Notes: a model not told the origin generated them from the letters alone. A stretch of DNA of 11,715 bases from a virus (IMGVR_UViG_2778261201_000003:1-11715); one strand, 5' to 3'; counted from the stretch's first letter, positions 1-11,339 are shown. Numbers and translations: made by a program.

Positions 1-714
1 ATGTGGGTCAATAAGTATATTGACGATTGCACTGATGAGGATTTAAACGATCGTGACTTTATTGCATCAGTTGTTGACCGGGCTATTTTTCATTTCGCGA
101 TTAATAGTATATGTAATCCTGGGGATAATAAAGATGCGACTCCCATTGAACGATGTACTTTTGATGTAGAAACTAAGAATGGCCTTCCCTCCACGGTTCA
201 GCTATTTTATGAGGAATCTAAGGATAATGAACCTTTAGCGAATATACATTTTCAAGCAATAGGTTCTGGTTTTTTAACGTTTGTTAATGCCTGCCAGGAA
301 CATGATGACAACAGCTTAAAATTATTTGCTTCGCTGTTAATTTCACTTTCATATTCTAGTGCCTACACAGATTTAGCCGGAGCAGAAAAAGTGAATATTA
401 ATGAATATAATGAGAACTATCTGACAGCTCAGTTTGAAGAATTATCTCAACGTGATATGAAGAAGTACCTGGGAGAGATGAAGCATCTGGCGGACCGGGG
501 GGGGATGAAATTTGATGACTATCTGGATAAAATGTCACTTCTGGTGAATGAAGGAAAGCTCGAACCTGATATTTTAAGCAAAATGCGAGATGCTGCACCG
601 AAATTAATTGACTTTGCTAAGTCGTTTGACCCAAACTCAAAGGAAAAGATTAAAATACTTACAGATACTTCTAATTTAATTTATGATTTATTCGGGGTTA
701 AATCGGCGAAATAA
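1..714 (+). CDS. yjbM: Low-GC hypothetical protein, YjbM-like (DUF2713-type); may start upstream of the window
   Basis: 237-aa ORF ending TAA at 712-714, followed by a hairpin plus T-run at 754-783. The symbol is inferred from size (~235 aa) and position upstream of dusA in E. coli, not from recognised sequence motifs. Confidence 0.5.
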   Translation: MWVNKYIDDCTDEDLNDRDFIASVVDRAIFHFAINSICNPGDNKDATPIERCTFDVETKNGLPSTVQLFYEESKDNEPLANIHFQAIGSGFLTFVNACQEHDDNSLKLFASLLISLSYSSAYTDLAGAEKVNINEYNENYLTAQFEELSQRDMKKYLGEMKHLADRGGMKFDDYLDKMSLLVNEGKLEPDILSKMRDAAPKLIDFAKSFDPNSKEKIKILTDTSNLIYDLFGVKSAK

Positions 715-1064: not shown

Positions 1065-1187
1065 TCTACATTTGAAAATGCACGGTAATTCTGAAATGCA
1101 AAAAATCAACCAAACCAGCGCAATGCCTGAAAAAACTGACGTTCACTGGAGTGGTCGGTTTAGCGTTGCACCAATGCTCGATAGGAT
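1065..1187 (+). repeat. attL-side copy of the dusA 5' region (native chromosomal version)
   Basis: About 81% identical over ~110 bp to 10302-10411 (21 mismatches by hand alignment); identical blocks include ATGCCTGAAAAAACTG and ATGCTCGA; similarity stops after ~1187. Confidence 0.65.
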
Positions 1188-1200
1188 GTACCGTTTTTGA
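1078..1200 (+). pseudogene. dusA: Displaced 5' fragment of native dusA (40 codons then TGA)
   Basis: Translates to MHGNSEMQKINQTSAMPEKTDVHWSGRFSVAPMLD then diverges (RMYRF*); parallels the N-terminus of the intact dusA at 10302. Confidence 0.6.
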
Positions 1201-1325
1201 AAAACAAGTAGTTATACACTTTGTGGGAGCCTATTGGGAACCCGGTGTTTTCATTTCAAGGTGTAATCCATGCCGGGCATCAGAATGAGATATAATGAGA
1301 TTTTTAGTGTTCCGCTTGAGAGTCT

Positions 1326-1862
1326 ATGATGCTTACCCTAGACGAGATAGGTCAATCTGTACGTAACAATATCCAGTTGATTATTGATCATGTCGGCTTA
1401 CCTCTTGCTGTTGGTCCGCTCAGTGATGATGATTACAAGATTCTGTGTGGTGGCTATGGTGAGCTTGAATGGGACTATGCGTTAAGCACCTATGGCAACT
1501 CCAGAGAAAAGTATGAGTTCTGCATAAAACTTGTTCAGCAAGGTCGGGTTCAGGGAATACCATCAGGAGCAGCAATTTGTGTTTATGGGGTTGAAGAAAA
1601 CATCTTTCGTATCCATATGATCGAAAGGTTTTCTAGAGAAGATGAATCTCACCCATTGAAAGGGCGCATGGTTTTACTCACTCTTATGAGTGCTTTTATA
1701 TTTTGTAAAGCTGTTGAATGTAAAGTTGTCCACATTGTAGAGCCAGTACCAGAACTGGTGCAGTATTACGAGTCTTTTGGTTTCCGCATGGAACAGTGCG
1801 GTTATGTGATGTCTGCAGTCATTGATGAGCTGCAGGATATCTTTCTTAAATTTGCTCAGTAG
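1326..1862 (+). CDS. Hypothetical cargo protein, possibly a GNAT-fold acetyltransferase
   Basis: 178-aa ORF; C-terminal segment KVVHIVEPVPELVQYYESFGF resembles the GNAT beta-strand/helix/YxxxGF pattern; no canonical Q/RxxGxG/A motif seen, so function is tentative. Confidence 0.5.
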   Translation: MMLTLDEIGQSVRNNIQLIIDHVGLPLAVGPLSDDDYKILCGGYGELEWDYALSTYGNSREKYEFCIKLVQQGRVQGIPSGAAICVYGVEENIFRIHMIERFSREDESHPLKGRMVLLTLMSAFIFCKAVECKVVHIVEPVPELVQYYESFGFRMEQCGYVMSAVIDELQDIFLKFAQ

Positions 1863-2058
1863 GTATAGACGAGAAGGGTCTACAAATTGTAGGATACCCG
1901 TCCAGATTACCTTAAAGGTACATCTATGGCAGTCGTTTTGTGCTTAAACTACTAAGAAACGATGTCACCAATCGACATGATCGATTGGCATAAGTTAGCG
2001 AAACAAGCTAGCTTTAAAGAGAGGGTTAGAGGCGCCTTTACTGTCTCGGGAGTTTTCT

Positions 2059-2232
2059 ATGAAAGATCAAAAAGCAACCAAGCCACAGGTTAAGTTCGAC
2101 ACAATGAAAGCATTCGCAGGTATGGGTGCTGCTGTTGAAGTTCTGATGAAGGCTGCTCCTAATGCGTTCACTCACGCTACTGTCTCTGGTAAAGAGCAGC
2201 AGGGTAAGCTTCGTCGTCGCAAAGCAGCATGA
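2059..2232 (+). CDS. Small basic hypothetical protein (57 aa)
   Basis: ATG at 2059 preceded by GGGAG (2048-2052); ends TGA 2230-2232; followed by a strong intrinsic terminator; not in the ORF track because it is under 60 aa. Confidence 0.5.
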   Translation: MKDQKATKPQVKFDTMKAFAGMGAAVEVLMKAAPNAFTHATVSGKEQQGKLRRRKAA

Positions 2233-2252
2233 TCATAGCTGGTGCTTTTTGA

Positions 2253-2278
2253 AAACCCGCCTTTAGGCGGGTTTTTTC
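2253..2278. terminator. Bidirectional Rho-independent terminator
   Basis: AAACCCGCC (2253-2261), loop TTTA, GGCGGGTTT (2266-2274), then T-run; A-run upstream gives a U-tract on the minus strand too. Ends the plus small ORF and the minus-strand operon. Confidence 0.75.
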
Positions 2279-2279
2279 T

Positions 2280-2561
2280 TTAGTGATGTTCTTTGCCCTT
2301 CTGTTTGCTTGTTCTGACCTGTTCCCACTCGATACGTCCTTCTTCTCGTCTTTTGTCTATGTATTCCGCAAGATCCTGAATATTGATGCAACGTTTTGCT
2401 TTTTGTGATGTGCCGATGCGATATGTTGGAACGGGCAACTTACAAGCGTTTGCTTTTGCTTCTGCCGTGGCTGGACTCATGCCAAAGTACTTTTGGCTAA
2501 CTGCTGAGAGTTCAATGTTAGGGGTATTGAATTCAGCCATCAGTAAAAACAAGGTGTTCAT
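2280..2561 (-). CDS. PrtN/AlpA-like small DNA-binding protein (possible regulator or excision factor)
   Basis: Start chosen at ATG 2561 (MNTLFLLMAEF...) with GGAG 7 nt upstream; the MNTLFLL N-terminus resembles PrtN-family proteins as I recall them. Confidence 0.55.
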   Translation of the reverse strand: MNTLFLLMAEFNTPNIELSAVSQKYFGMSPATAEAKANACKLPVPTYRIGTSQKAKRCINIQDLAEYIDKRREEGRIEWEQVRTSKQKGKEHH

Positions 2562-2597
2562 AATTTTCTCCATCAAAACCGGCTGCACCCGGGAAAA

Positions 2598-3170
2598 TCA
2601 TAATTCTGTGCTGGTGGCAGGAATTAATTTCTGCCAGATAGCGGAAACATATTTTGCCTGATGACGAGCATCAGCCAGGGCGTTGTGCCGTTCGCCATCG
2701 AAAGGCATGTCCATTTTTGGGTCGAATCCGATGGAACGCCCAAGCGTAACGATCGTGCGCGCATCGTGATCATTCCAGTACGCCCATGGGCAGATTTGTC
2801 CTGCTCGCTCATAAGCTCCGCGTAAAATTACGTTGTCGAAGTTGGCTCCGTTACCCCAGACTTTTAAATATTTCGTATTGTCTGCGTGCCGATTAATGAA
2901 ATGGCTCAGTTCAGAGAGTGCATCGCTGATCGACAAAGTATCATCAATACAGATTGCAGCTCGTGCTTCAGGGCTTTGTTTCAACCACCACAGGATGGTG
3001 TCGCCGTCAGGTGTGGCCCCTTGCTCCATAGCACTGTCCAAGCTGACAGCCGTATAGAATTCTTGTCCGATGTCTCCGGTTTCTGGGGTGAAGAACACTG
3101 CGCCAATAGAAACGATCGGCGCATCCTTATTTTTCCCCATCGTCTCAAGGTCGATCATTAAGTTGTTCAT
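2598..3170 (-). CDS. DEDDh-type 3'-5' exonuclease (DnaQ-like fold)
   Basis: Motifs MIDLETMG (Exo I), WGNGANFD (Exo II) and HNALADA (Exo III); start ATG at 3170 overlaps the upstream stop (ATGA) with GGAGG upstream. Confidence 0.8.
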   Translation of the reverse strand: MNNLMIDLETMGKNKDAPIVSIGAVFFTPETGDIGQEFYTAVSLDSAMEQGATPDGDTILWWLKQSPEARAAICIDDTLSISDALSELSHFINRHADNTKYLKVWGNGANFDNVILRGAYERAGQICPWAYWNDHDARTIVTLGRSIGFDPKMDMPFDGERHNALADARHQAKYVSAIWQKLIPATSTEL

Positions 3171-3451
3171 CACTTTACCTCCTGCGGCGGTTCTTGTATT
3201 GGCATCGGCTGAGCTATATATAGCGGCTGAACATACCAGCCCTTTGATAACCAACTGTCAGCAACGTTTTTACTTCTGGTTATTGCCGGAATACCTAAGC
3301 CATTGTCTGAATGCAGCCATGCCACCGGATCCTCTTCCAGCGATGCCAGAGCAATTTCATAAGCACGGCGCTCAACATTGTCTCGCACGTCCATGCTGCT
3401 GATTCGTTCTTTGATTTCTTTAATCAGTTCTTTATCGGTAAATGTGGTCAT
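3170..3451 (-). CDS. Hypothetical phage protein (93 aa)
   Basis: ORF translationally coupled on both sides (TAATG overlap at 3451, ATGA at 3170); GGAG upstream. Confidence 0.6.
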   Translation of the reverse strand: MTTFTDKELIKEIKERISSMDVRDNVERRAYEIALASLEEDPVAWLHSDNGLGIPAITRSKNVADSWLSKGWYVQPLYIAQPMPIQEPPQEVK

Positions 3452-3813
3452 TATGCTCCAGCCTCCGGTGCTTTTGGCATTACAGCCCAGTGAGTGATAT
3501 TGACGTTTTCAAGGTCCCCGACCTGAAATGTCCACTGCCATTCTCCGGTTTCTTTTTGCCCCCATGTATACCAGAGAGAACGCCAGCCAATCAGCCAGCC
3601 TTCTCCATTAGCATCAAATAACAGAATACTTTCGTTCGCTGGCGGCAGTTCAGCTGACACTGGTATTACTTTGTTTTCCAGTGCTGCACATTTAGCTTCA
3701 AGCGCATCAAATTTACGCACCAGGTACTCAGCATTTGTTTCGTTCACTTTCAGATCTCGCGGTACACATTTCCCGCGAAGAAACCCTTCCATTTCGAAAA
3801 CATTCATGCGCAT
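3451..3813 (-). CDS. DUF551-like phage protein
   Basis: 120-aa ORF with Trp-rich C-terminal region (DANGEGWLIGW...W...W) typical of DUF551 proteins in lambdoid early regions; overlaps the upstream gene end by 10 nt. Confidence 0.6.
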   Translation of the reverse strand: MRMNVFEMEGFLRGKCVPRDLKVNETNAEYLVRKFDALEAKCAALENKVIPVSAELPPANESILLFDANGEGWLIGWRSLWYTWGQKETGEWQWTFQVGDLENVNITHWAVMPKAPEAGA

Positions 3814-4340
3814 TTGCGTAACTCCGATAACTCGTTAAAACGTTCCATAAACATCCCATAGGCATGGCCTGGCGACAGTGGAATAACTTTGAACATCTCT
3901 GTTGCCGGGATACCTTCCAGTACAGGCCAGAAAGAGCCATCATCAAGCCCGAGATCGCGGCGTTCGGTTGCCAGCATGATGAGATCGGCATATTTCACGG
4001 GCGTACTCATAACCGGGGGTAACCCGTATTTCTCACGGATTACGGCGTCTATTTTTTCTTCCATCCGTTTATAGTCAGGAAGAAGGCGTTTCAGTGGTGC
4101 GGGAATGTCCTGGCAATACGCTTCTGTTGCATCATGCATTAACGCTTCAAAAGCAAATTCGTGCGGTACCAGCTGGCTGCAAAGCACCGCATGTTGGGCG
4201 ACGCTGTAGAAGTGTGAAAGATGTCCTGCAAAGCGACAGATATTTGAAAGGGAAACCGCGATATCGTTAATAACGATGTCATCTTTATTTATCCTGTCAT
4301 AATAAAAATGCTTCCCGGAAAAAGTTTTAATAAATGACAT
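3804..4340 (-). CDS. HD-domain phosphohydrolase, YfdR-like (5'-deoxynucleotidase family)
   Basis: Start at ATG 4340 (MSFIKTFSGK...) with GGAG 8 nt upstream, giving 178 aa; H...HD metal-binding pattern (AGHLSH, MHDATEAY); resembles E. coli CPS-53 YfdR as recalled. Confidence 0.75.
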   Translation of the reverse strand: MSFIKTFSGKHFYYDRINKDDIVINDIAVSLSNICRFAGHLSHFYSVAQHAVLCSQLVPHEFAFEALMHDATEAYCQDIPAPLKRLLPDYKRMEEKIDAVIREKYGLPPVMSTPVKYADLIMLATERRDLGLDDGSFWPVLEGIPATEMFKVIPLSPGHAYGMFMERFNELSELRKCA

Positions 4341-4429
4341 TTTGTTCTCCACGTATATGCGCTGCACCGCGCTGAATTTTGATTGCAGCAATCCAGCCCA
4401 TTTGACATGGGATGATTGCTGCAATTTTT

Positions 4430-5347
4430 TTAAGTTGTTGGATTTTGGCTTTTATCTTCTTTGTAAGAAAGAAGGTCACACATCAAATTAACTACCTTGC
4501 TGAATTGGAAAAGGTCAGTGCCAGTCTGATGACGCCACTGGAATGCTTTATCATCTTCATCATTAAATGTCTGAGATTGAGTATTGATGCGCGAAAAATG
4601 GAAATTTTCGGTAAGAATGAAGGTCACACCGCAACCGGATAACTCCATTTTATCAGCAGTGAAACTACTACTAAGGCTATCGGCCAGTTCGCTTTGAATT
4701 GACTCATGCTCAGCTGAGTAGCGAATAATTTCCTTTTGATCTGCGTAGCGTGATAGCTGAATATAATTCCCGACAGTGAATCCTTCAAATGCATTGGCTG
4801 CACCATTGATGTAGTTCTTCAGGCGTGTAGTCAGTCCATTCTTGATATCACTGATGTTGATTGTTTCTGTTTTCACTGAACCGACAACCTTAATCAGCAT
4901 TGCGCATACCATACCGGCTATTATTTTATTGGTTGTGTTGATTACCAATAATTTCTCATCAGTGCTGTACAATGCAAGAATCAGCGTAGACTTAACAAAT
5001 GCCTGTTTGCATAGATCTACTCGTACGTTATCAATAATGGCCAGTCGTTCGGCACGCTTTAATTTATTCCCGGACATATTTTCGATTGTTTGGATTCGAG
5101 AATTAGCTTCTTTCATGACGACATGTCGGGGAATTATTTTCTGATCATGACGGATTACCATTGCGTACCCACCAGATATCGGAGTTACCAGTTCACCAGT
5201 GACAGGATTCTCTACAAAAGAGGACCGTGAAAATTCTGTTTCCCCGATTTCAGAATAAGGGAGTTCGAGAAGATGCCCTTCAATAGCCTGTATACTAGGT
5301 AATGTTGCTCGGTACACAATTGCGTTACGAAATTTTGGTAATTTCAT
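4430..5347 (-). CDS. RdgC-like recombination-associated protein
   Basis: Start at ATG 5347 (MKLPKFRNAIVYR...) with GAGGAAAA RBS, 305 aa; N-terminal FRN..VYR and KIIPRHVV segments parallel E. coli RdgC. The open frame extending to 5497 is GC-rich non-coding read-through. Confidence 0.7.
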   Translation of the reverse strand: MKLPKFRNAIVYRATLPSIQAIEGHLLELPYSEIGETEFSRSSFVENPVTGELVTPISGGYAMVIRHDQKIIPRHVVMKEANSRIQTIENMSGNKLKRAERLAIIDNVRVDLCKQAFVKSTLILALYSTDEKLLVINTTNKIIAGMVCAMLIKVVGSVKTETINISDIKNGLTTRLKNYINGAANAFEGFTVGNYIQLSRYADQKEIIRYSAEHESIQSELADSLSSSFTADKMELSGCGVTFILTENFHFSRINTQSQTFNDEDDKAFQWRHQTGTDLFQFSKVVNLMCDLLSYKEDKSQNPTT

Positions 5348-5397
5348 TCTATTTTCCTCTGCACAAGATATTAGTTTCTCCACAAAACAGAGAAGAA

Positions 5398-5745
5398 CAC
5401 CTGCGGTGGCAGCCGCCCGGATGGATTGGGTTATGAGCCCGTCGTCCGGTGATGCTCTTCTCTGTTTTGTAAAAAGAGCGGTACCAGCCGGAAGCAAGTG
5501 TACAAACTGGTACCGCGAGGACTACACACAGCATAAAGTTGTGGTGCCGGGTGCCTCCCGGTGCCTGGCGAAGGTTGCACACCAGGCGGGTGGGTATCCA
5601 CAGAAGGTCGACTGTCAGCCTCAACCTTAACCCGCGTGCGCTGAGCCGCATTCACCACAACGCTAAGGATTCTCTCTGGTTGAAAATACTTAGCTGTTAT
5701 GTGCCTGTCTTTTCACCACTTCAGGCTCGGTGGTATCCTTTTAAG
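5398..5745. other. GC-rich, hairpin-dense non-coding element (candidate structured RNA or regulatory region)
   Basis: Four overlapping ORFs in different frames, all Arg/Pro/Gly-rich and not protein-like; perfect 10-bp inverted repeat GCGGTACCAG/CTGGTACCGC (5478-5516); further stems CCGGG/CCCGG (about 5546-5560), GCCTGG/CCAGGC (about 5564-5588) and GTGG/CCAC (about 5592-5603). Confidence 0.3.
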
Positions 5746-5770
5746 TCCGTATACATAAAAGGAAAATCAA

Positions 5771-6016
5771 ATGACTTTTGATGAAAAAGAACTTGATAAT
5801 GCAATTAATAAAATCATCGTAACGTCGCTCTTTTCCTGTCTCAGCGACACTCAGCAGAAACAGTTCTACGAATCGGCTTTCAACATGATCGAGCGTTGTT
5901 GTTTCTGCGATGCCGACGAGCTACCTGAAAAAATCAGGAAACAGTTGGCTGATGCTCTTCGAGTGCGACTTTCTGACCAATTTTCTGAAATGTACTCTCC
6001 GAATTTGGACAAATAG
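5771..6016 (+). CDS. Hypothetical small protein, reverse-oriented moron-like gene
   Basis: 81-aa ORF with AAGGAAA RBS; upstream candidate promoter (TTCACC, 16-nt spacer, extended -10 TGgTATCCT at 5712-5739); 12-bp bulged hairpin at 6026-6051 after the stop. Confidence 0.4.
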   Translation: MTFDEKELDNAINKIIVTSLFSCLSDTQQKQFYESAFNMIERCCFCDADELPEKIRKQLADALRVRLSDQFSEMYSPNLDK

Positions 6017-6209
6017 AAAAAGGCCATTTCCATTCAGGGTCTGATGGAAATACTTCAGCCTGTTCCAAAGCACGGCGTAAAGAGAATACAACTCCAGCCA
6101 TAATCTGATGTTTCCCATTGGTCCAGCTATCGCCGCTCTGATCTACAGGAGCGGCTATGTCGTATGACCAAACGACTTCACCACTATTGTTTAAAATCTG
6201 GACTTTCAT
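5934..6209 (-). CDS. Hypothetical protein (91 aa)
   Basis: ATG 6209 with GGAGG 12 nt upstream, just after the zinc-ribbon gene stop; its 3' end overlaps the plus ORF 5771-6016 by 83 bp, so one of the two may be spurious or shorter. Confidence 0.4.
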   Translation of the reverse strand: MKVQILNNSGEVVWSYDIAAPVDQSGDSWTNGKHQIMAGVVFSLRRALEQAEVFPSDPEWKWPFSICPNSESTFQKIGQKVALEEHQPTVS

Positions 6210-6217
6210 TTTGTTCT

Positions 6218-6421
6218 TTAACCTCCAGATTTCCGCGCATCTAAAGGCGCATTCTCATTTGGTGTGAACTGAATAGTTGTGCTGATATTGATTAATGCCC
6301 CGACACACAAGACTACGCACTCAGAGCAGATAGCAACTTCATCTTTTCCGCCTTTGGCGATGATTTTTTTTGCCTGCAGCTCGTTTGCGCCACAAAACGA
6401 GCATGTGAAATAACGGTTCAT
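6218..6421 (-). CDS. ClpX-type zinc-ribbon small protein
   Basis: YFTCSFCG...AICSECVVLC gives a CxxC...CxxC pattern closely resembling the ClpX N-terminal zinc-binding domain; start chosen at ATG 6421 (alternative ATG 6439 has no RBS). Confidence 0.6.
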   Translation of the reverse strand: MNRYFTCSFCGANELQAKKIIAKGGKDEVAICSECVVLCVGALINISTTIQFTPNENAPLDARKSGG

Positions 6422-6519
6422 TTGCGCTCTCTTACACATAGTATTTAACGAATCATCCGGTCATTCATACGCCACCGGCGGCTACTTCGTGGGCGTCCTG
6501 CCTGTTCGTTGTTTCGCTT

Positions 6520-6555
6520 GGGTACATTATGTATCTCAAAGGTACATTGTCAAGT
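6520..6555 (-). promoter_or_regulatory. pL-like early-left promoter with candidate repressor operators
   Basis: Minus strand -35 TTGACA (6553-6548), 16-17 nt spacer, -10 CATAAT/ATAATG (about 6531-6525); GGTACATTATGTATC (6521-6535) overlaps -10 and GGTACATTGTCAAGT (6541-6555) overlaps -35. Confidence 0.5.
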
Positions 6556-6580
6556 ATAAAAAAACCTGCCGAAGCAGGTT
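6556..6580 (-). terminator. Rho-independent terminator downstream of the cI-like gene
   Basis: On the minus strand: AACCUGC, UUCG tetraloop, GCAGGUU, then a run of 7 U. Confidence 0.65.
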
Positions 6581-6592
6581 CATAAACATTGA

Positions 6593-7267
6593 TTAGGCTT
6601 TGATTTTGTATCTTCTTGGTTTTCCTGAGAAAATCACTGTACCAATTATAGAGCAATTACCGTTGATCTTAATGTAAGGCTCAGGCCAGTTTGGGTTTAA
6701 CGCTTTGAGATAACGCTGTGTCCCATCTTCTATCAACCTTTTGAAGGTGGTTTCACCTGTATCGTGCATCAATGCAATAACGTCGTCACCGTGGCAGGCA
6801 GGGACTTCAGGATCTACAAAAATCATGTCTCCCGGGCGGTACTCATCAATCATTGAATCACCAATCACCCGCAAGATATAAGTCATTTCGCCACAGGGTA
6901 CAGGGCAGGGATAAGTTTCTGCTGTGCTCAAATCAACCTCAGAATAGCCAACTTCTTTCCATGCTCCGGCCTGTACCCATGATATGACAGGGACTAACGT
7001 TATTTGTTTGTTAGTGATTGAAACATCAGGTTTTTTTGTGATGTTCGTGGTCTGGTGTTCTTGATCAAGCCATCCGACAGGCAGGTCGAAACATTTTTCG
7101 ATGTGCCGTGCCATGCTGTCACCGATATTTTTAGTAGCACCATCTCCCATAAACCTGCTGGTCTGGGTTGGCTCGCGATCAATCATGGTGGCAAAGGAAG
7201 AATTCCCGCCAACACCATCTCTCAGTTTTCTGGCGTTAGACCGCCGGATGTCATGGACTGTTTTCAT
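6593..7267 (-). CDS. CI-like repressor with N-terminal HTH and C-terminal S24 (LexA-like) autopeptidase domain
   Basis: 224-aa ORF; candidate Ala-Gly cleavage site (VQAGAW); Ser in VIGDSM and Lys in TFKRL form the Ser/Lys dyad; divergent from the Cro-like gene. Confidence 0.85.
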   Translation of the reverse strand: MKTVHDIRRSNARKLRDGVGGNSSFATMIDREPTQTSRFMGDGATKNIGDSMARHIEKCFDLPVGWLDQEHQTTNITKKPDVSITNKQITLVPVISWVQAGAWKEVGYSEVDLSTAETYPCPVPCGEMTYILRVIGDSMIDEYRPGDMIFVDPEVPACHGDDVIALMHDTGETTFKRLIEDGTQRYLKALNPNWPEPYIKINGNCSIIGTVIFSGKPRRYKIKA

Positions 7268-7357
7268 AAAGAAATTAAAACCTTTGTACCGATAAGGTAC
7301 AAGTATCTTGAAGGTTCATGCTAATCATGTAATATGTATATCGGAGGTACATATTGT
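7268..7357. promoter_or_regulatory. Divergent cI/cro switch region with palindromic operator-like sites
   Basis: Perfect palindrome TTGTACC-gataa-GGTACAA (7284-7302); GGTACATATTGTATG (7346-7360) nearly identical to the pL-region site; candidate pR (TTGAAG 7308-7313, TAATAT 7330-7335); candidate leaderless pRM-like promoter on the minus strand (-35 TTGTAC, -10 TTTAAT ending 7 nt before the cI ATG). Confidence 0.45.
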
Positions 7358-7558
7358 ATGAAAGCGTATTGGGACTCTTTAACCAAAGAACAGCAGGGCG
7401 AGTTGGCCGGAAAAGTTGGCTCAACACCAGGCTACTTACGGCTGGTTTTCAATGGTTATAAAAAAGCCAGTTTTGTGCTGGCTAAAAAACTTGAGCAATG
7501 CACGTCAGGTGCAATTACGAAATCTGACTTAAGACCGGATATCTATCCGAAAGATTAA
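7358..7558 (+). CDS. Cro-like small HTH regulator (YdaS-like)
   Basis: 66-aa ORF from ATG 7358 with GGAGG at 7343-7347; the upstream ATG at 7334 lacks an RBS; motif GAITKSDLRPDIYP resembles Cro/YdaS-type proteins; divergent from the repressor. Confidence 0.7.
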   Translation: MKAYWDSLTKEQQGELAGKVGSTPGYLRLVFNGYKKASFVLAKKLEQCTSGAITKSDLRPDIYPKD

Positions 7559-7589
7559 CAGAACACCTTCAATTTTTAACCACAGAACG

Positions 7590-8102
7590 ATGAGGCTAAC
7601 CGTGGGTAAGCATCACTGGAAAGTAGAAAAACAGCCTGAGTGGTACGTGAAAGCTGTCAGAAAAACTATCGCGGCGTTGCCGGGGGGTTACGCTGAAGCT
7701 GCTGAGTGGCTGGATGTAACAGAGAACGCTTTATTCAACCGCCTTCGTGCAGATGGCGATCAGATTTTCCCGCTGGGATGGGCAATGATTTTACAGCGCG
7801 CGGCTGGCACTCACTACATTGCGGATGCTGTCGCACAGTCTGCTGGTGGGGTGTTTGTATCGCTTCCTGAAATTGAGGAAGTAGAGAACGCCGATATAAA
7901 CCAGCGCCTGCTGGAAGTCATCGAACAGATCGGGAGTTACTCAAAGCAGATTCGTTCGGCAATCGAAGATGGGGTATCTGATTTTCCCCTGTCCCCACAT
8001 CCCGTTTCGCTGCTTCTCCCAAACCAACCTTTCAAATATTTTTCTGAATCAGGTGATATTTCGCCTCTTCTCCTGTTTTTACAACAGGAGAAGCACTCAT
8101 GA
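7590..8102 (+). CDS. CII-like phage regulatory protein (putative, 186 CII/CP76-like)
   Basis: 170-aa ORF directly after the cro-like gene; size and position match CII of 186-type phages; real start may be GTG 7602 (GAGG RBS); stop overlaps the invertase start (ATGA). Confidence 0.5.
   Translation: MRLTVGKHHWKVEKQPEWYVKAVRKTIAALPGGYAEAAEWLDVTENALFNRLRADGDQIFPLGWAMILQRAAGTHYIADAVAQSAGGVFVSLPEIEEVENADINQRLLEVIEQIGSYSKQIRSAIEDGVSDFPLSPHPVSLLLPNQPFKYFSESGDISPLLLFLQQEKHS
8067..8093. promoter_or_regulatory. 27-bp perfect palindrome covering the invertase RBS
   Basis: CTTCTCCTGTT-tttac-AACAGGAGAAG (11-bp arms); the right arm contains the invertase Shine-Dalgarno AGGAG. Confidence 0.4.
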
Positions 8103-8662
8103 TTTACGGGTATGTTCGTGTATCAACAAATCATCAGGATACAGAGTTGCAACGTCTTGCACTTGAGTCAGCTGGCTGTGAGCGAATTTATGAAGAATAT
8201 GCCAGTGGCAGAACAGCTAATCGCCCTGTGTTAAAGGAATTAATTTCGGTGATGAAAAGTGGAGATGAGTTGATTGTCTGGAAGCTAGATCGGATAGGGA
8301 GAAATGTGCTACATGCGCTATTGATGTTTCAAAATCTGCACGAAAAAGGCGTTAATTTTCGGAGTATTACAGATGGTGTAGACCTGAAAACAGCAAGTGG
8401 TCGCTATAATTTCCGTAATATTCTTTCTGCTGCGCAGTATGAATCTGATTTGAATAGCGAGCGAACTTTAGCTGGTTTGGCTATTGCCAGATCCAAAGGC
8501 CGGATTGGTGGGCGTAGACCGAAGTTTAGCGACGAGCAGTGGCAACAGATGGGAGCGCTCATAGCGGCAGGGAAATCACGGCGTTATGTTGCACGTATCT
8601 ATAACGTTGGGCTATCAACCCTATATAAACGATTTCCTGTTACTGGCATTCAAACGAAATAA
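8099..8662 (+). CDS. Serine recombinase, Hin/Gin/Pin-family DNA invertase
   Basis: 187 aa; N-terminal MIYGYVRVSTNHQD with catalytic Ser; resolvase fold motifs (LDRIGR); C-terminal HTH (GKSRRYVARIYNVGLSTLYKR). Confidence 0.85.
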   Translation: MIYGYVRVSTNHQDTELQRLALESAGCERIYEEYASGRTANRPVLKELISVMKSGDELIVWKLDRIGRNVLHALLMFQNLHEKGVNFRSITDGVDLKTASGRYNFRNILSAAQYESDLNSERTLAGLAIARSKGRIGGRRPKFSDEQWQQMGALIAAGKSRRYVARIYNVGLSTLYKRFPVTGIQTK

Positions 8663-8702
8663 TTTAAAAGCAATTTAAAGAGTTATTTGTCTAATGTTGG
8701 AA

Positions 8703-8738
8703 GCCGCAGCCACGTCGTATGCAAGAACGTGCTGCGGC
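8703..8738. other. GC-rich hairpin in the convergent intergenic region (possible bidirectional terminator or binding site)
   Basis: GCCGCAGC(C)ACG pairs with CGTGCTGCGGC across a 13-nt loop; no clear U-tract on either strand. Confidence 0.35.
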
Positions 8739-8805
8739 TGGCTGGCGAACTTTCGATAGTGCGAGTATTGAATGATTTCCAGCCGTTACCGATTTTACGT
8801 GTTAA

Positions 8806-9054
8806 TTAGTGAACAAACCACTCGTCAGCAGATTCCCAGGTATCTTTCAGAGTCTCCTGAACAAAAGTTTTTGCAGAATCCTTATCTGCGGTGCGTGTAA
8901 CAGAAAGGCCATCGTTGCTGGTGGCTTTTACGATCACCTCTACATCGTCATAACGTTTACTGATGCGTCGGGTTAATTCTTCCTTTAACGCATCCACAGC
9001 ACCGGTTGGCATTTTAGTCATTTTTTCTTTGGCTATGCAGATTTCAATACGCAT
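8806..9054 (-). CDS. DinI-family DNA-damage-inducible protein
   Basis: 82 aa, [11 protein letters not shown]...[11 protein letters not shown] parallels E. coli DinI (MRIEVTIAK...ETWESADDWFV); two LexA boxes immediately upstream. Confidence 0.85.
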
Positions 9055-9067
9055 AAAAGTCCCTCTA

Positions 9068-9115
9068 TACTGTGTTTGTATACAGTATTATTTTTAACTG
9101 TATGGATAAACAGTG
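9068..9115 (-). promoter_or_regulatory. Two tandem LexA (SOS) boxes over the DinI-like promoter
   Basis: TACTGTGTTTGTATACAGTA (9068-9087) and AACTGTATGGATAAACAGTG (9096-9115), both CTGT-N8-ACAG; minus-strand -35 TTGACA (9119-9114) and a -10 TAAAAA-like hexamer overlap them. Confidence 0.75.
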
Positions 9116-10213
9116 TCAAGAGGTCTTATTTCTGCTCCTTTGGAGCTCTTCAAAACGATTATGTAAAGATTTCGGATACAGTTCGGTATATACCTGCCAT
9201 AGCACGTTTAATGAACGATGCCCTGTGACCTGGGCGACTTCCTCAATACTAAAACCAGCCTCAAATAAGCGACTTGCCCCTTCTCTACGCAAATCATGGT
9301 ATCGCAGATCCTTAATACCTAATTTGCTTCTTACCCTCTGAAATCCCGCAGTAACAGAAGTGCTGTTATATGGAAAAATGAATTCCGATTTTTTGGGCTG
9401 TCGTTGGACGATATCCCAGGCTTCCCCAAGCAAGGCTACTTTCATGTGGTTGCCTTCCTTTTTGCGTGGATCTTTCCTGTCTCTTACGAGTATAGATTTT
9501 TGTTCCTGGTCGAGATCTTCCCATCGTAACCGGCATACTTCTCCGATCCGCATACAGGACCACACAGAAAATTTGAGGATATCAACGAACGGAATTTTTG
9601 AGCATTTATGAGTAGATCGTTGTTGAAGGCCTTCAATGAGCATGTCCAGTTCATCAGATGCTGGTCTACGATTACGACGGTTTGATTTACCAATCAAACC
9701 AAGTTTAAGTAGATATGGGCGAGCGCTTTTCGCCGGGTTTGATGTGTAATTAATTCCGTATACAGGTTTGGCCGCATCCAGAACACTGCCAAGATAACTA
9801 ACATCGTGGCTGACTGTTGCTGGACCTGCACCAGCGTTGTTTCTTAGCCTGCAATGTTCAATTACGTCATTTTCTGTCAGTTCAGATAGTTTGATCGCGG
9901 AGATGTCACTATCCATAAGCAGTTCCAGCACATATCTTTTAGTACGGCCTGCTTTACCTCCGGCATTTGGGTCATTTAAATATTTGTGTAGTAAGTCACG
10001 GACTGTAAGTCCGTCAACTGCATTTGATGATGGAATGCCATATAGATCTAATTCCATCACTTTCTGTGTTCCCCATGTTTTGGCATGAGCATGTTTAGGG
10101 AATGTTTTGCTTTCCCTGTAAGTGATAACACCTTTTTCTTTGATAATCACATTACAGCGATAGCGTGGTGTGCCATCGGATTTTAGTCGTTTCTCTATGT
10201 TATAGTACGCCAT
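9116..10213 (-). CDS. int: Tyrosine recombinase, dusA-associated integrase
   Basis: 365 aa; C-terminal catalytic region with R...HDLR...GH...Y pattern (RYHDLRREGA, VTGHRSLNVLWQVYTELY); divergent from and adjacent to the dusA 5' end. Confidence 0.9.
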   Translation of the reverse strand: MAYYNIEKRLKSDGTPRYRCNVIIKEKGVITYRESKTFPKHAHAKTWGTQKVMELDLYGIPSSNAVDGLTVRDLLHKYLNDPNAGGKAGRTKRYVLELLMDSDISAIKLSELTENDVIEHCRLRNNAGAGPATVSHDVSYLGSVLDAAKPVYGINYTSNPAKSARPYLLKLGLIGKSNRRNRRPASDELDMLIEGLQQRSTHKCSKIPFVDILKFSVWSCMRIGEVCRLRWEDLDQEQKSILVRDRKDPRKKEGNHMKVALLGEAWDIVQRQPKKSEFIFPYNSTSVTAGFQRVRSKLGIKDLRYHDLRREGASRLFEAGFSIEEVAQVTGHRSLNVLWQVYTELYPKSLHNRFEELQRSRNKTS

Positions 10214-10232
10214 TACACGACCTCGTTATTTC

Positions 10233-10268
10233 GGGTTCCCATAAAACGTGGGAACCTGTGCGGGAACC
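10233..10268. promoter_or_regulatory. GGGAACC repeat cluster between int and dusA (candidate arm-type or promoter sites)
   Basis: GGGTTCCC (10233-10240), GGGAACC (10249-10255), GGGAACC (10262-10268); a further GGGAACC at 1236-1242 just inside attL. Confidence 0.35.
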
Positions 10269-10288
10269 TAACGCGAGAAAAATAGCCT

Positions 10289-10411
10289 GAAATGTTCAAA
10301 AATGCACGATAATCATGAAACACAAAAAATTAATCAAACCAGCGTGATGCCTGAAAAAACTGGTGTTTACTGGAATTCTCGGTTTAGCATTGCTCCTATG
10401 CTCGACTGGAC
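10289..10411 (+). repeat. attR-side copy of the dusA 5' region (island-supplied 5' end fused to native dusA)
   Basis: About 81% identical to 1065-1187; downstream of ~10406 the sequence continues as intact dusA. Confidence 0.65.
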
Positions 10412-11339
10412 GGACAGACATTGCCGCTATTTCTTGCGTCTGCTTTCCCGCAATACGTTGCTGTATACCGAAATGGTGACCACAGGGGCGATTATTCACG
10501 GTAAAGGTGATTACCTGGCGTACAGTGAAGAAGAACATCCGGTAGCGTTGCAACTCGGCGGTAGCGATCCGGCGGCGCTGGCACAGTGTGCGAAGCTGGC
10601 AGAAGCGCGTGGATATGATGAGATCAACCTGAATGTCGGCTGCCCGTCTGACCGGGTGCAGAACGGCATGTTTGGTGCGTGTCTGATGGGTAATGCGCAG
10701 CTGGTTGCCGACTGTGTGAAAGCGATGCGCGATGTGGTGTCGATTCCAGTGACGGTGAAAACGCGTATTGGCATCGATGACCAGGACAGCTATGAATTTC
10801 TCTGCGATTTCATCAACACTGTTTCCGGCAAAGGCGAGTGTGAGATGTTTATCATCCACGCACGTAAAGCCTGGCTTTCGGGGTTAAGCCCGAAAGAAAA
10901 CCGTGAAATCCCGCCGCTCGATTATCCGCGTGTGTATCAACTGAAGCGTGACTTTCCGCATCTGACAATGTCGATTAACGGTGGTATCAAGTCGCTGGAA
11001 GAGGCCAAAGCACACCTGCAACATATGGATGGCGTGATGGTCGGGCGCGAGGCGTATCAGAATCCGGGTATTCTGGCGGCGGTAGACCGGGAGATCTTTG
11101 GTTCCTCGGATACCGATGCCGATCCGGTGGCGGTAGTGCGCGCCATGTATCCGTACATTGAGCGTGAACTCAGCCAGGGGACGTATCTCGGCCATATTAC
11201 CCGGCATATGCTGGGTTTGTTCCAGGGTATTCCTGGCGCGCGGCAGTGGCGGCGTTATTTAAGTGAAAATGCCCATAAAGCGGGTGCTGACATTAACGTG
11301 CTGGAACACGCGCTCAAACTGGTGGCGGATAAGCGTTAA
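10302..11339 (+). CDS. dusA: tRNA-dihydrouridine synthase A
   Basis: 345-aa ORF recognised as E. coli DusA throughout; the first ~35 codons ([32 protein letters not shown]) differ from the displaced copy at 1078 and are island-derived. Confidence 0.95.

Follow-up and report, generated by a model that had tools for sequence, protein, structure and literature searches.

A cryptic mEp460-like prophage remnant inserted at the 5' end of Escherichia coli dusA

Tyrosine integrases that target the 5' end of dusA, a tRNA-dihydrouridine synthase gene, have been treated in three studies that bear on the locus described here. Farrugia et al. (2015, NAR; PMC4482086) found dusA-associated integrases (DAI) in more than 200 bacteria, encoded beside the 5' end of dusA in islands and prophages that swap this end, including the TIM-barrel beta-1 strand, for a copy of their own and whose excision circles were detected by PCR (polymerase chain reaction). 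A prtN homologue was present in 60 of the 94 islands, about half of the elements were prophages or remnants, and eight dusA islands of E. coli appear in Table S1 of that paper, among them 'phage remnants' of 10.86 kb in O157:H7. Balasubramanian et al. (2019; PMC6328086) described the integration of phage Phi1720a-02 at attB GCTCCCATGCTCGACTGGA, which lies 100 bp into the dusA gene of C. rodentium; the phage supplies an in-frame Phi-dusA' and regenerates its attP in vivo. Durand et al. (2021; PMC8409611) proved that RdfN, a PrtN-domain protein, is the directionality factor for dusA-specific integrases. We analyzed a stretch of 11,715 nt (IMGVR_UViG_2778261201_000003:1-11715; the whole of it is called the window below), for which an original prediction made from the sequence alone had proposed an island inserted in the dusA 5' end and carrying a replacement dusA start. 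The feature is clearly an ordinary member of the system already published. It shares with the DAI elements (PMC4482086) an int gene beside the dusA 5' end, imperfect direct repeats, a new in-frame 5' end and a prtN homologue, and differs from them in nothing essential, being a distinct deletion derivative with cI/cro and an orphan invertase.

A repeat search over the whole window returned a direct repeat by far longer than any other, 1075-1191 versus 10299-10415, with 95 of the 117 nt identical (81%) and a spacing of 9,224 nt; the second-longest repeat has 34 nt at 71% identity, and a binomial estimate over all position pairs puts the chance of a 95/117 identity at about 1e-28. The longest block perfectly common to both copies is the 16-mer ATGCCTGAAAAAACTG (1123-1138 and 10347-10362). 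The two copies and their surroundings are as follows.

1-714, plus strand: yjbM (DUF2713), the left chromosomal flank (Pfam PF10897, E=3.4e-145).
1075-1191, plus strand: left repeat copy, attL region, from the repeat search and the K-12 match of 100/100 upstream of the core.
1078-1200, plus strand: dusA' remnant, a 40-codon dead-end open reading frame (ORF) with ATG at 1078, stop at 1198-1200 and translation MHGNSEMQKINQTSAMPEKTDVHWSGRFSVAPMLDRMYRF up to the stop; native 5' end to 1181, then a 19-nt phage-derived tail.
1174-1181, plus strand: attL core ATGCTCGA, the crossover or overlap region.
10299-10415, plus strand: right repeat copy, attR region, in which the dusA 5' mimic borne by the island ends at 10397 and native dusA begins with the core.
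10302-11339, plus strand: chimeric intact dusA, 345 amino acids, with codons 1-32 from the prophage and the remainder native (Pfam Dus, E=7.8e-105; NCBIfam DusA, 581 bits).
10398-10405, plus strand: attR core ATGCTCGA, from the K-12 and mEp460 alignments.

These results bear out the original prediction that two dusA-start copies of about 110 bp and about 81% identity are present, the left one a 40-codon dead end and the right one fused in frame to a whole dusA. The phage-type first 32 codons bring 9 amino-acid differences from K-12 and leave the 345-residue frame unbroken, in agreement with the further claim that a 5' end supplied by the element keeps the host gene whole. In other E. coli the stretch equivalent to the dusA' remnant is annotated as a partial tRNA-dihydrouridine synthase pseudogene. 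The gene order of K-12, yjbM-dusA-pspG, is kept: yjbM flanks the element to its left, dusA-pspG to its right. A tRNA scan of the window found no tRNA, and therefore the element is not a tRNA-targeting island.

As the reference for polarity we used the island-free yjbM-dusA locus of E. coli K-12 MG1655, aligned to both junctions, with identities counted per 100 nt. In the 100 nt upstream of the core, K-12 matches the left copy at 100/100 positions and the right copy at 81/100, while in the 100 nt downstream of it K-12 matches the right side at 100/100 and the left side at 31/100. Because K-12 matches the left copy upstream and the right copy downstream, we assign the left copy to attL, where it represents the native 5' end displaced by the insertion, and the right copy to attR, where foreign sequence is joined to native dusA. 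This is the comparison that the original prediction had proposed, and the dusA 5' end of the island-free locus sides with the left copy, as it had supposed. The 8-mer ATGCTCGA is the sole segment that is the same in attB, attP, attL and attR and has informative differences on both sides; it lies at dusA codons 33-35 and encodes Met33-Leu34-Asp35. The crossover had been placed, as a first option, near this 8-mer, which the four-way alignment confirms, at coordinates (1175-1182 and 10399-10406) that are 1 nt off from the real ones, 1174-1181 and 10398-10405. The inserted element thus spans 1182-10405 (equally 1174-10397), or 9,224 bp. Compared by eye, the E. coli attB GCACCAATGCTCGACTGGA matches the published C. 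rodentium attB at 17 of 19 positions.

A virtual attP of 428 nt, in which the right end of the island is joined through the core to the left one, is contiguous in mEp460, a virion-derived genome of 44.5 kb, at 24386-24813 with 95.1% identity. The mEp460 attP agrees with attR at 93/100 positions upstream of the core and with attL at 92/100 downstream of it, and the four-way alignment of attP, attB, attL and attR has the classical site-specific pattern. The 40-codon dusA' mini-ORF is carried by free mEp460 itself. The gene next to attR encodes the integrase.

9116-10213, minus strand: dusA-specific tyrosine integrase of the DAI family (Pfam PF00589, E=1.1e-20, residues 189-346).

This gene is divergent from dusA across a spacer of 88 bp (int start 10213, dusA start 10302). 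Its product, Int, is 98.6-100% identical to integrases in 10 Escherichia phage records, among them phage Lys8385Vzw (100%), Stx2 phage 1720a-02 (99.7%) and mEp460 (98.6%, over 365 amino acids); motif inspection, as distinct from structural alignment, gives R222, H306/R309, H332 and Y342 as candidates for the R-H-R-H tetrad and the nucleophilic Tyr. Homologues of DAI are present in roughly 320 phage records. The mEp460 Int is annotated as INT_Rci-like in its record; PMC4482086 names INT_Rci-like as a sister family and lists the mEp460 Int among its DAI hits. With Int in the published family and the substitute 5' end found in a free phage, the original prediction of an integrase that targets the dusA 5' end and brings its own replacement start holds good. 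By analogy with the literature on its 99.7%-identical relative and on PrtN homologues, Int would carry out both integration and excision, the latter with the PrtN homologue as recombination directionality factor (RDF).

What had been called an island is a deletion remnant of a mEp460-like lambdoid prophage, a point that the original prediction had not seen. The GC content of the element, about 0.41-0.49, is below that of dusA, about 0.52-0.54. By blastn, only the stretches 22889-26617, 28524-29443, 30820-30965 and 32521-32922 of mEp460 are represented in it. The homologous blocks and the genes on which this conclusion bears are listed here.

1182-10405, no strand: inserted element, mEp460-like lambdoid prophage remnant of 9,224 bp, with five mEp460-homologous blocks and absent from K-12.
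1182-3206: mEp460 block 1, with gp23, gp24, rdfN and the exonuclease gene.
3463-4381: mEp460 block 2, with the DUF551-like and yfdR-like genes.
5371-5516: mEp460 block 3.
7574-7975: mEp460 block 4, the 5' part of the cII-like gene.
8701-10405: mEp460 block 5, with dinI, int and the attP arm.
2280-2588, minus strand: PrtN-domain protein, an RdfN-type excisionase or RDF (Pfam PF11112, E=4e-23; phrog_1300 'excisionase', E=8e-40).
6593-7267, minus strand: CI-type repressor with an S24 (LexA-like) autocleavage domain (Pfam PF00717, E=1.5e-26).
7334-7558, plus strand: Cro/YdaS-like helix-turn-helix protein (Pfam PF15943, E=2e-5, under the curated cut-off).
7590-8102, plus strand: truncated gene for a CII-like activator (Pfam PF06892 and phrog_101, residues 5-129 only).
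8099-8662, plus strand: orphan Pin/Hin-type serine DNA invertase (Pfam PF00239, E=2e-36, and PF02796; 81.5% DNA identity to phi80 pinL).
8014-8039, plus strand: single 26-bp site like the crossover sites of Din-family invertases, the one match at up to 3 mismatches.

Among the ORFs of the element, Pfam and phrog searches detected no replication, Q, lysis, terminase, head or tail genes. The cI-like and cro-like genes are intact, and the cII-like homology stops at 7975/7976, a deletion junction defined by the blastn breakpoints, past which there follow a short tail-collar pseudogene fragment and an invertase region also present in phi80 and mEp237. Since replication, Q, lysis and virion genes are missing and the cII-like homology ends at this junction, the element is a cryptic deletion remnant. 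Int, attP, the dusA' mini-ORF, DinI, gp23, gp24 and the PrtN-like gene of mEp460 and Phi1720a-02 all have their match in the window; however, these are complete phages of 44-47 kb, whereas the window element has lost about 35 kb. It differs from mEp460 also in its immunity region (about 5517-7573), which is unlike that of the phage, and in its invertase, which mEp460 lacks. The PrtN-domain protein is identical to mEp460 gp25 at 99 of 102 amino acids and is encoded, like gp25, at the far end of the element from int.

The invertase has only one putative site to act upon in the window: a second copy of the crossover-like site was not found there at up to 3 mismatches, and there is no invertible segment. 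A palindrome, CTTCTCCTGTTTTTACAACAGGAGAAG, stands directly upstream of the invertase start, where phi80 has its IR3 repeats. The site at 8014-8039 may resemble the hix, gix and pix sites. Since the deletion junction borders on the invertase region, deletion mediated by the invertase was considered; it was rejected, as 38 bp separate the break at 7975/7976 from the putative crossover site downstream of it, and the break falls inside the tail-collar pseudogene fragment.

The alternative that survives best, although we consider it very unlikely, is that the element is not a decayed prophage at all but either a prophage that is still complete and inducible or a small mobile island or satellite in its own right. 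Its int, rdfN, S24 cI and cro genes are intact, as are both att sites with all of the heptamers described below, and SOS-induced excision is therefore plausible; yet it has just 9.2 kb without any replication, Q, lysis, terminase, head or tail gene, its cII-like gene is cut at the deletion junction and its invertase is left without a partner site, and the same Pfam and phrog searches found no primase/rep or packaging-hijack genes of the kind typical of satellites.

A second alternative concerns the place of strand exchange, for which the original prediction had also offered the other shared block, ATGCCTGAAAAAACTG. This block does exist and is the longest perfect one in the repeat, but between it and the core there are nine informative differences, all of host type in attL and of non-host type in attR, and the three nearest the core agree with the mEp460 attP. 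The exchange therefore took place in the 8-mer ATGCTCGA and not in the 16-mer; the attB and core published for the 99.7%-identical Int likewise include ATGCTCGA. Exchange at 1123-1138 and 10347-10362 is thus refuted for this window and deserves next to no credence.

We find it equally hard to believe that the repeat arose by local duplication or by RecA-mediated homeologous recombination in place of site-specific integration. An identity of 81% across about 100 bp could in principle permit rare homeologous exchange, and a shifted host/phage boundary is on record in the attR of an O157 strain, but the switch point is an 8-bp block that coincides with the published core, the gene for an intact and family-specific Int is 184 nt distant, free phages carry attP as one contiguous stretch, and the identical junction recurs in 663 genomes. 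A reversed polarity, with the right copy as the native dusA 5' end and the left fragment borne by the island, has nothing for it except the symmetry of the repeat itself and is already refuted by the K-12 identities upstream of the core (100/100 to the left copy, just 81/100 to the right) and by the right-copy sequence lying beside int in free phage mEp460, so that its probability is practically nil.

The O157 strain in question is E. coli O157:H7 TR01, in which the attR (locus L005, 12915-13060, aligned to 10295-10440 of the window) has host-type bases (GCGTTGCACCA) at all three of the informative positions that immediately precede the core. Its attL is likewise of host type, and the perfect identity between attL and attR thereby extends to 26 bp. 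The change is non-reciprocal: one dusA 5' copy has been converted by the other, or else the attP was a variant one. The case shows how the host/phage boundary could be blurred in other strains by secondary conversion.

Taken as a whole, site-specific integration of a mEp460-like phage into dusA with later decay is an account that we hold with great confidence. On this account, a temperate mEp460-like lambdoid phage entered the E. coli dusA 5' end by means of its own DAI-family tyrosine integrase, with an attP that carries an imitation of the dusA start of about 100 bp (ATG and 32 codons, 81% DNA identity to the host) ending in the overlap ATGCTCGA. Strand exchange inside this overlap gave attL at 1174-1181, with the displaced native 5' end left as a 40-codon dead end, and attR at 10398-10405, with the phage imitation in frame with the rest of dusA, so that the gene stayed whole. 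Int would probably bind five heptamers as arm sites, three before the core and two after it, and excision would require the PrtN/RdfN-type factor from the opposite prophage end (2280-2588). After integration, at least one deletion, with a junction at 7975/7976, removed about 35 kb that held the genes for replication, Q, lysis, head and tail, and left the 9.2-kb cryptic remnant, which may still be competent for excision.

Some results weigh against this account or parts of it. No complete E. coli genome has an exact copy of the remnant or covers at least 80% of the window, the best coverage being 66%, and thus the order of deletions cannot be reconstructed. A strict sigma-70 consensus scan of the 88-bp int-dusA spacer found no promoter. 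Residues 1-188 of Int have no Pfam or NCBIfam domain, including an arm-binding domain, and consequently the case for arm sites is one of DNA comparison only.

The same attL junction is present in 663 of 5,426 complete E. coli genomes, or about 12%, when a match over at least 80% of a 200-nt probe centred on the junction is required, and several different remnants occupy the dusA site, including those in strain 81 and O157:H7. An exact 40-nt probe across the 7975/7976 junction had 0 matches in genome contigs. In E. coli GPEC620-622 (locus L009, 2587-7016), the invertase gene, dinI, int, a partial dusA' and the PrtN-like gene stand in unbroken attP order inside a larger prophage region, an arrangement that would fit a tandem lysogen or integration of the element at another site; a YafO toxin gene takes the place there of the window's 57-residue ORF, between attP and the gene for the PrtN-like protein. 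In about 1,050 of the 5,426 genomes, the native dusA 5' probe had no megablast match or the match to the attB probe began only about 14 nt before the core (e.g. H88 and H89), and E. coli may thus commonly harbour additional variants of the dusA 5' end or other elements that target dusA.

Short repeated motifs flank both cores, at the following positions.

1225-1242, plus strand: P' arm, two direct heptamers, GGGAGCC (1225-1231) and GGGAACC (1236-1242), at +51 and +62 from the core; candidate arm-type Int sites.
10234-10268, no single strand: P arm, three GGGAACC, inverted at 10234-10240 and direct at 10250-10256 and 10262-10268, at -164, -148 and -136 from the core; candidate arm-type Int sites.

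GGGAACC has 4 copies in the window against about 0.9 expected, all beside the att cores, three of them in the spacer between int and dusA' and one to the right of attL, and GGGAGCC is a one-mismatch copy that precedes the heptamer at 1236-1242. The whole 44.5-kb mEp460 genome has just 4 copies of GGGAACC, all in attP. Three integrase lineages compare as follows.

Window/mEp460, Int 98.6-100% identical to that of the window: GGGAACC at -164 (inverted), -148, -136, +51 and +62.
Yersinia phage YeP1, Int 68.6% identical to that of the window: GGGGTGC at -163 (inverted), -148, -136, +50 and +61.
Vibrio Vinavirales (tectivirus-like) element, Int about 55% identical to that of the window: CGTACT-type motif at about -145, -134, +53 and +64.

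The positions are therefore conserved across the window, YeP1 and the Vibrio element, and the motif sequence differs with the integrase lineage. Because the positions are conserved and the sequence is lineage-specific, we regard the five heptamers as candidate arm-type sites, which Int probably binds. By the same comparison, DAI integrases may be heterobivalent like lambda Int. A literature search found no paper describing these heptamer sites, and they are the only increment that the present locus adds to the published system.

The element may also bring a promoter for dusA. By eye, an extended -10-like motif TGnTATAGT (TGTTATAGT) is seen at 10198-10206, overlapping int codons 3-5. Its host counterpart TGGTATAGT stands at 986-994, and the distance to the dusA ATG is 84 nt in the native arrangement and 96 nt in the phage-supplied one. 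YeP1 keeps TGCTATAGT at the corresponding place (locus L008, about 1508-1516, reverse complement). As a hypothesis only, the motif at 10198-10206 may be the dusA promoter supplied by the element. One can go further and suppose jointly that DAI integrases are heterobivalent with fixed five-site attP arms (about -164 inverted, -148, -136, +51 and +62) whose heptamers co-evolve with Int, that the element carries a dusA promoter in the first int codons, and that the remnant excises on SOS; this combination is tentative, and we think it somewhat more apt to fail than to hold. Neither the arm architecture, nor an int-embedded dusA promoter, nor SOS excision of the remnant was found stated in the searchable literature.

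The remaining genes of the element are these.

1326-1862, plus strand: 178-residue protein with no function assigned, homologue of mEp460 gp23 (177/177 amino acids; phrog_4350).
2059-2232, plus strand: 57-residue protein with no function assigned, phrog_2741, at the position of mEp460 gp24.
2598-3254, minus strand: 3'-5' exonuclease, Rv2179c-like DEDDh (Pfam PF16473, E=1.6e-74).
3451-3813, minus strand: DUF551-like early protein (Pfam PF04448, weak, E=0.0012).
3804-4424, minus strand: YfdR-like 5'-deoxynucleotidase (Pfam PF12917, E=5.6e-5; yfdR annotation in related loci).
4430-5497, minus strand: RdgC-family protein (Pfam PF04381, E=2.4e-30, residues 56-320; rdgC annotation in the GPEC620-622 locus L009).
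5469-5691, minus strand: match to the STnc100 family of small RNAs (Rfam RF02076, 49.1 bits versus a gathering score of 47).
8806-9054, minus strand: DinI-like protein (Pfam PF06183, E=1e-19; 82/82 amino acids to mEp460 gp21).

A ClpX-zinc-finger protein is encoded in the element as well. The 178-residue ORF, which lies directly inside attL and is transcribed away from the junction, has no sequence match in Pfam, NCBIfam, PADLOC or PDB, and its single-sequence AlphaFold model has a mean pLDDT (predicted local distance difference test) of 51, too low for use; it may be a lysogenic-conversion cargo gene. The true start of the RdgC-family gene is probably internal, near 5347. The STnc100 match is located between this gene and the immunity region, adjoined by a 25-nt inverted repeat (5382-5406 and 5446-5470).

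An element that supplies a substitute gene end, so that the target ORF survives, is also found in e14, inserted in icd, where the end is the 3' one and both the integrase family and the target are different. IMEVchUSA3 and the other dusA-specific SGI1-like elements (PMC8409611) resemble the window element in having the same target and in that int and the gene for a PrtN-domain RDF face each other across attP; however, they are plasmid-mobilizable and AcaCD-controlled, whereas the window element is phage-derived with a cI/S24 repressor, and their RdfN has 76 amino acids against 102 in the window. SXT in prfC (cited in PMC8409611) likewise brings a substitute gene end with which the target ORF survives, but by another integrase family and at another target.

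The locus is thus a textbook case of a phage that repairs the gene it disrupts, as published in 2015, 2019 and 2021, and opens no new question about that system. The exact prophage boundaries (1182-10405) and the crossover ATGCTCGA can now be given, and they explain the 'partial dusA' pseudogene call beside an intact dusA that recurs in about 12% of complete E. coli genomes. Excision of the remnant on SOS, if true, would toggle both the N-terminus and the promoter of dusA. The position-conserved heptamers add a small detail, open to testing, to what is known of att-site anatomy in the DAI family and could aid the design of dusA-targeted integration vectors.

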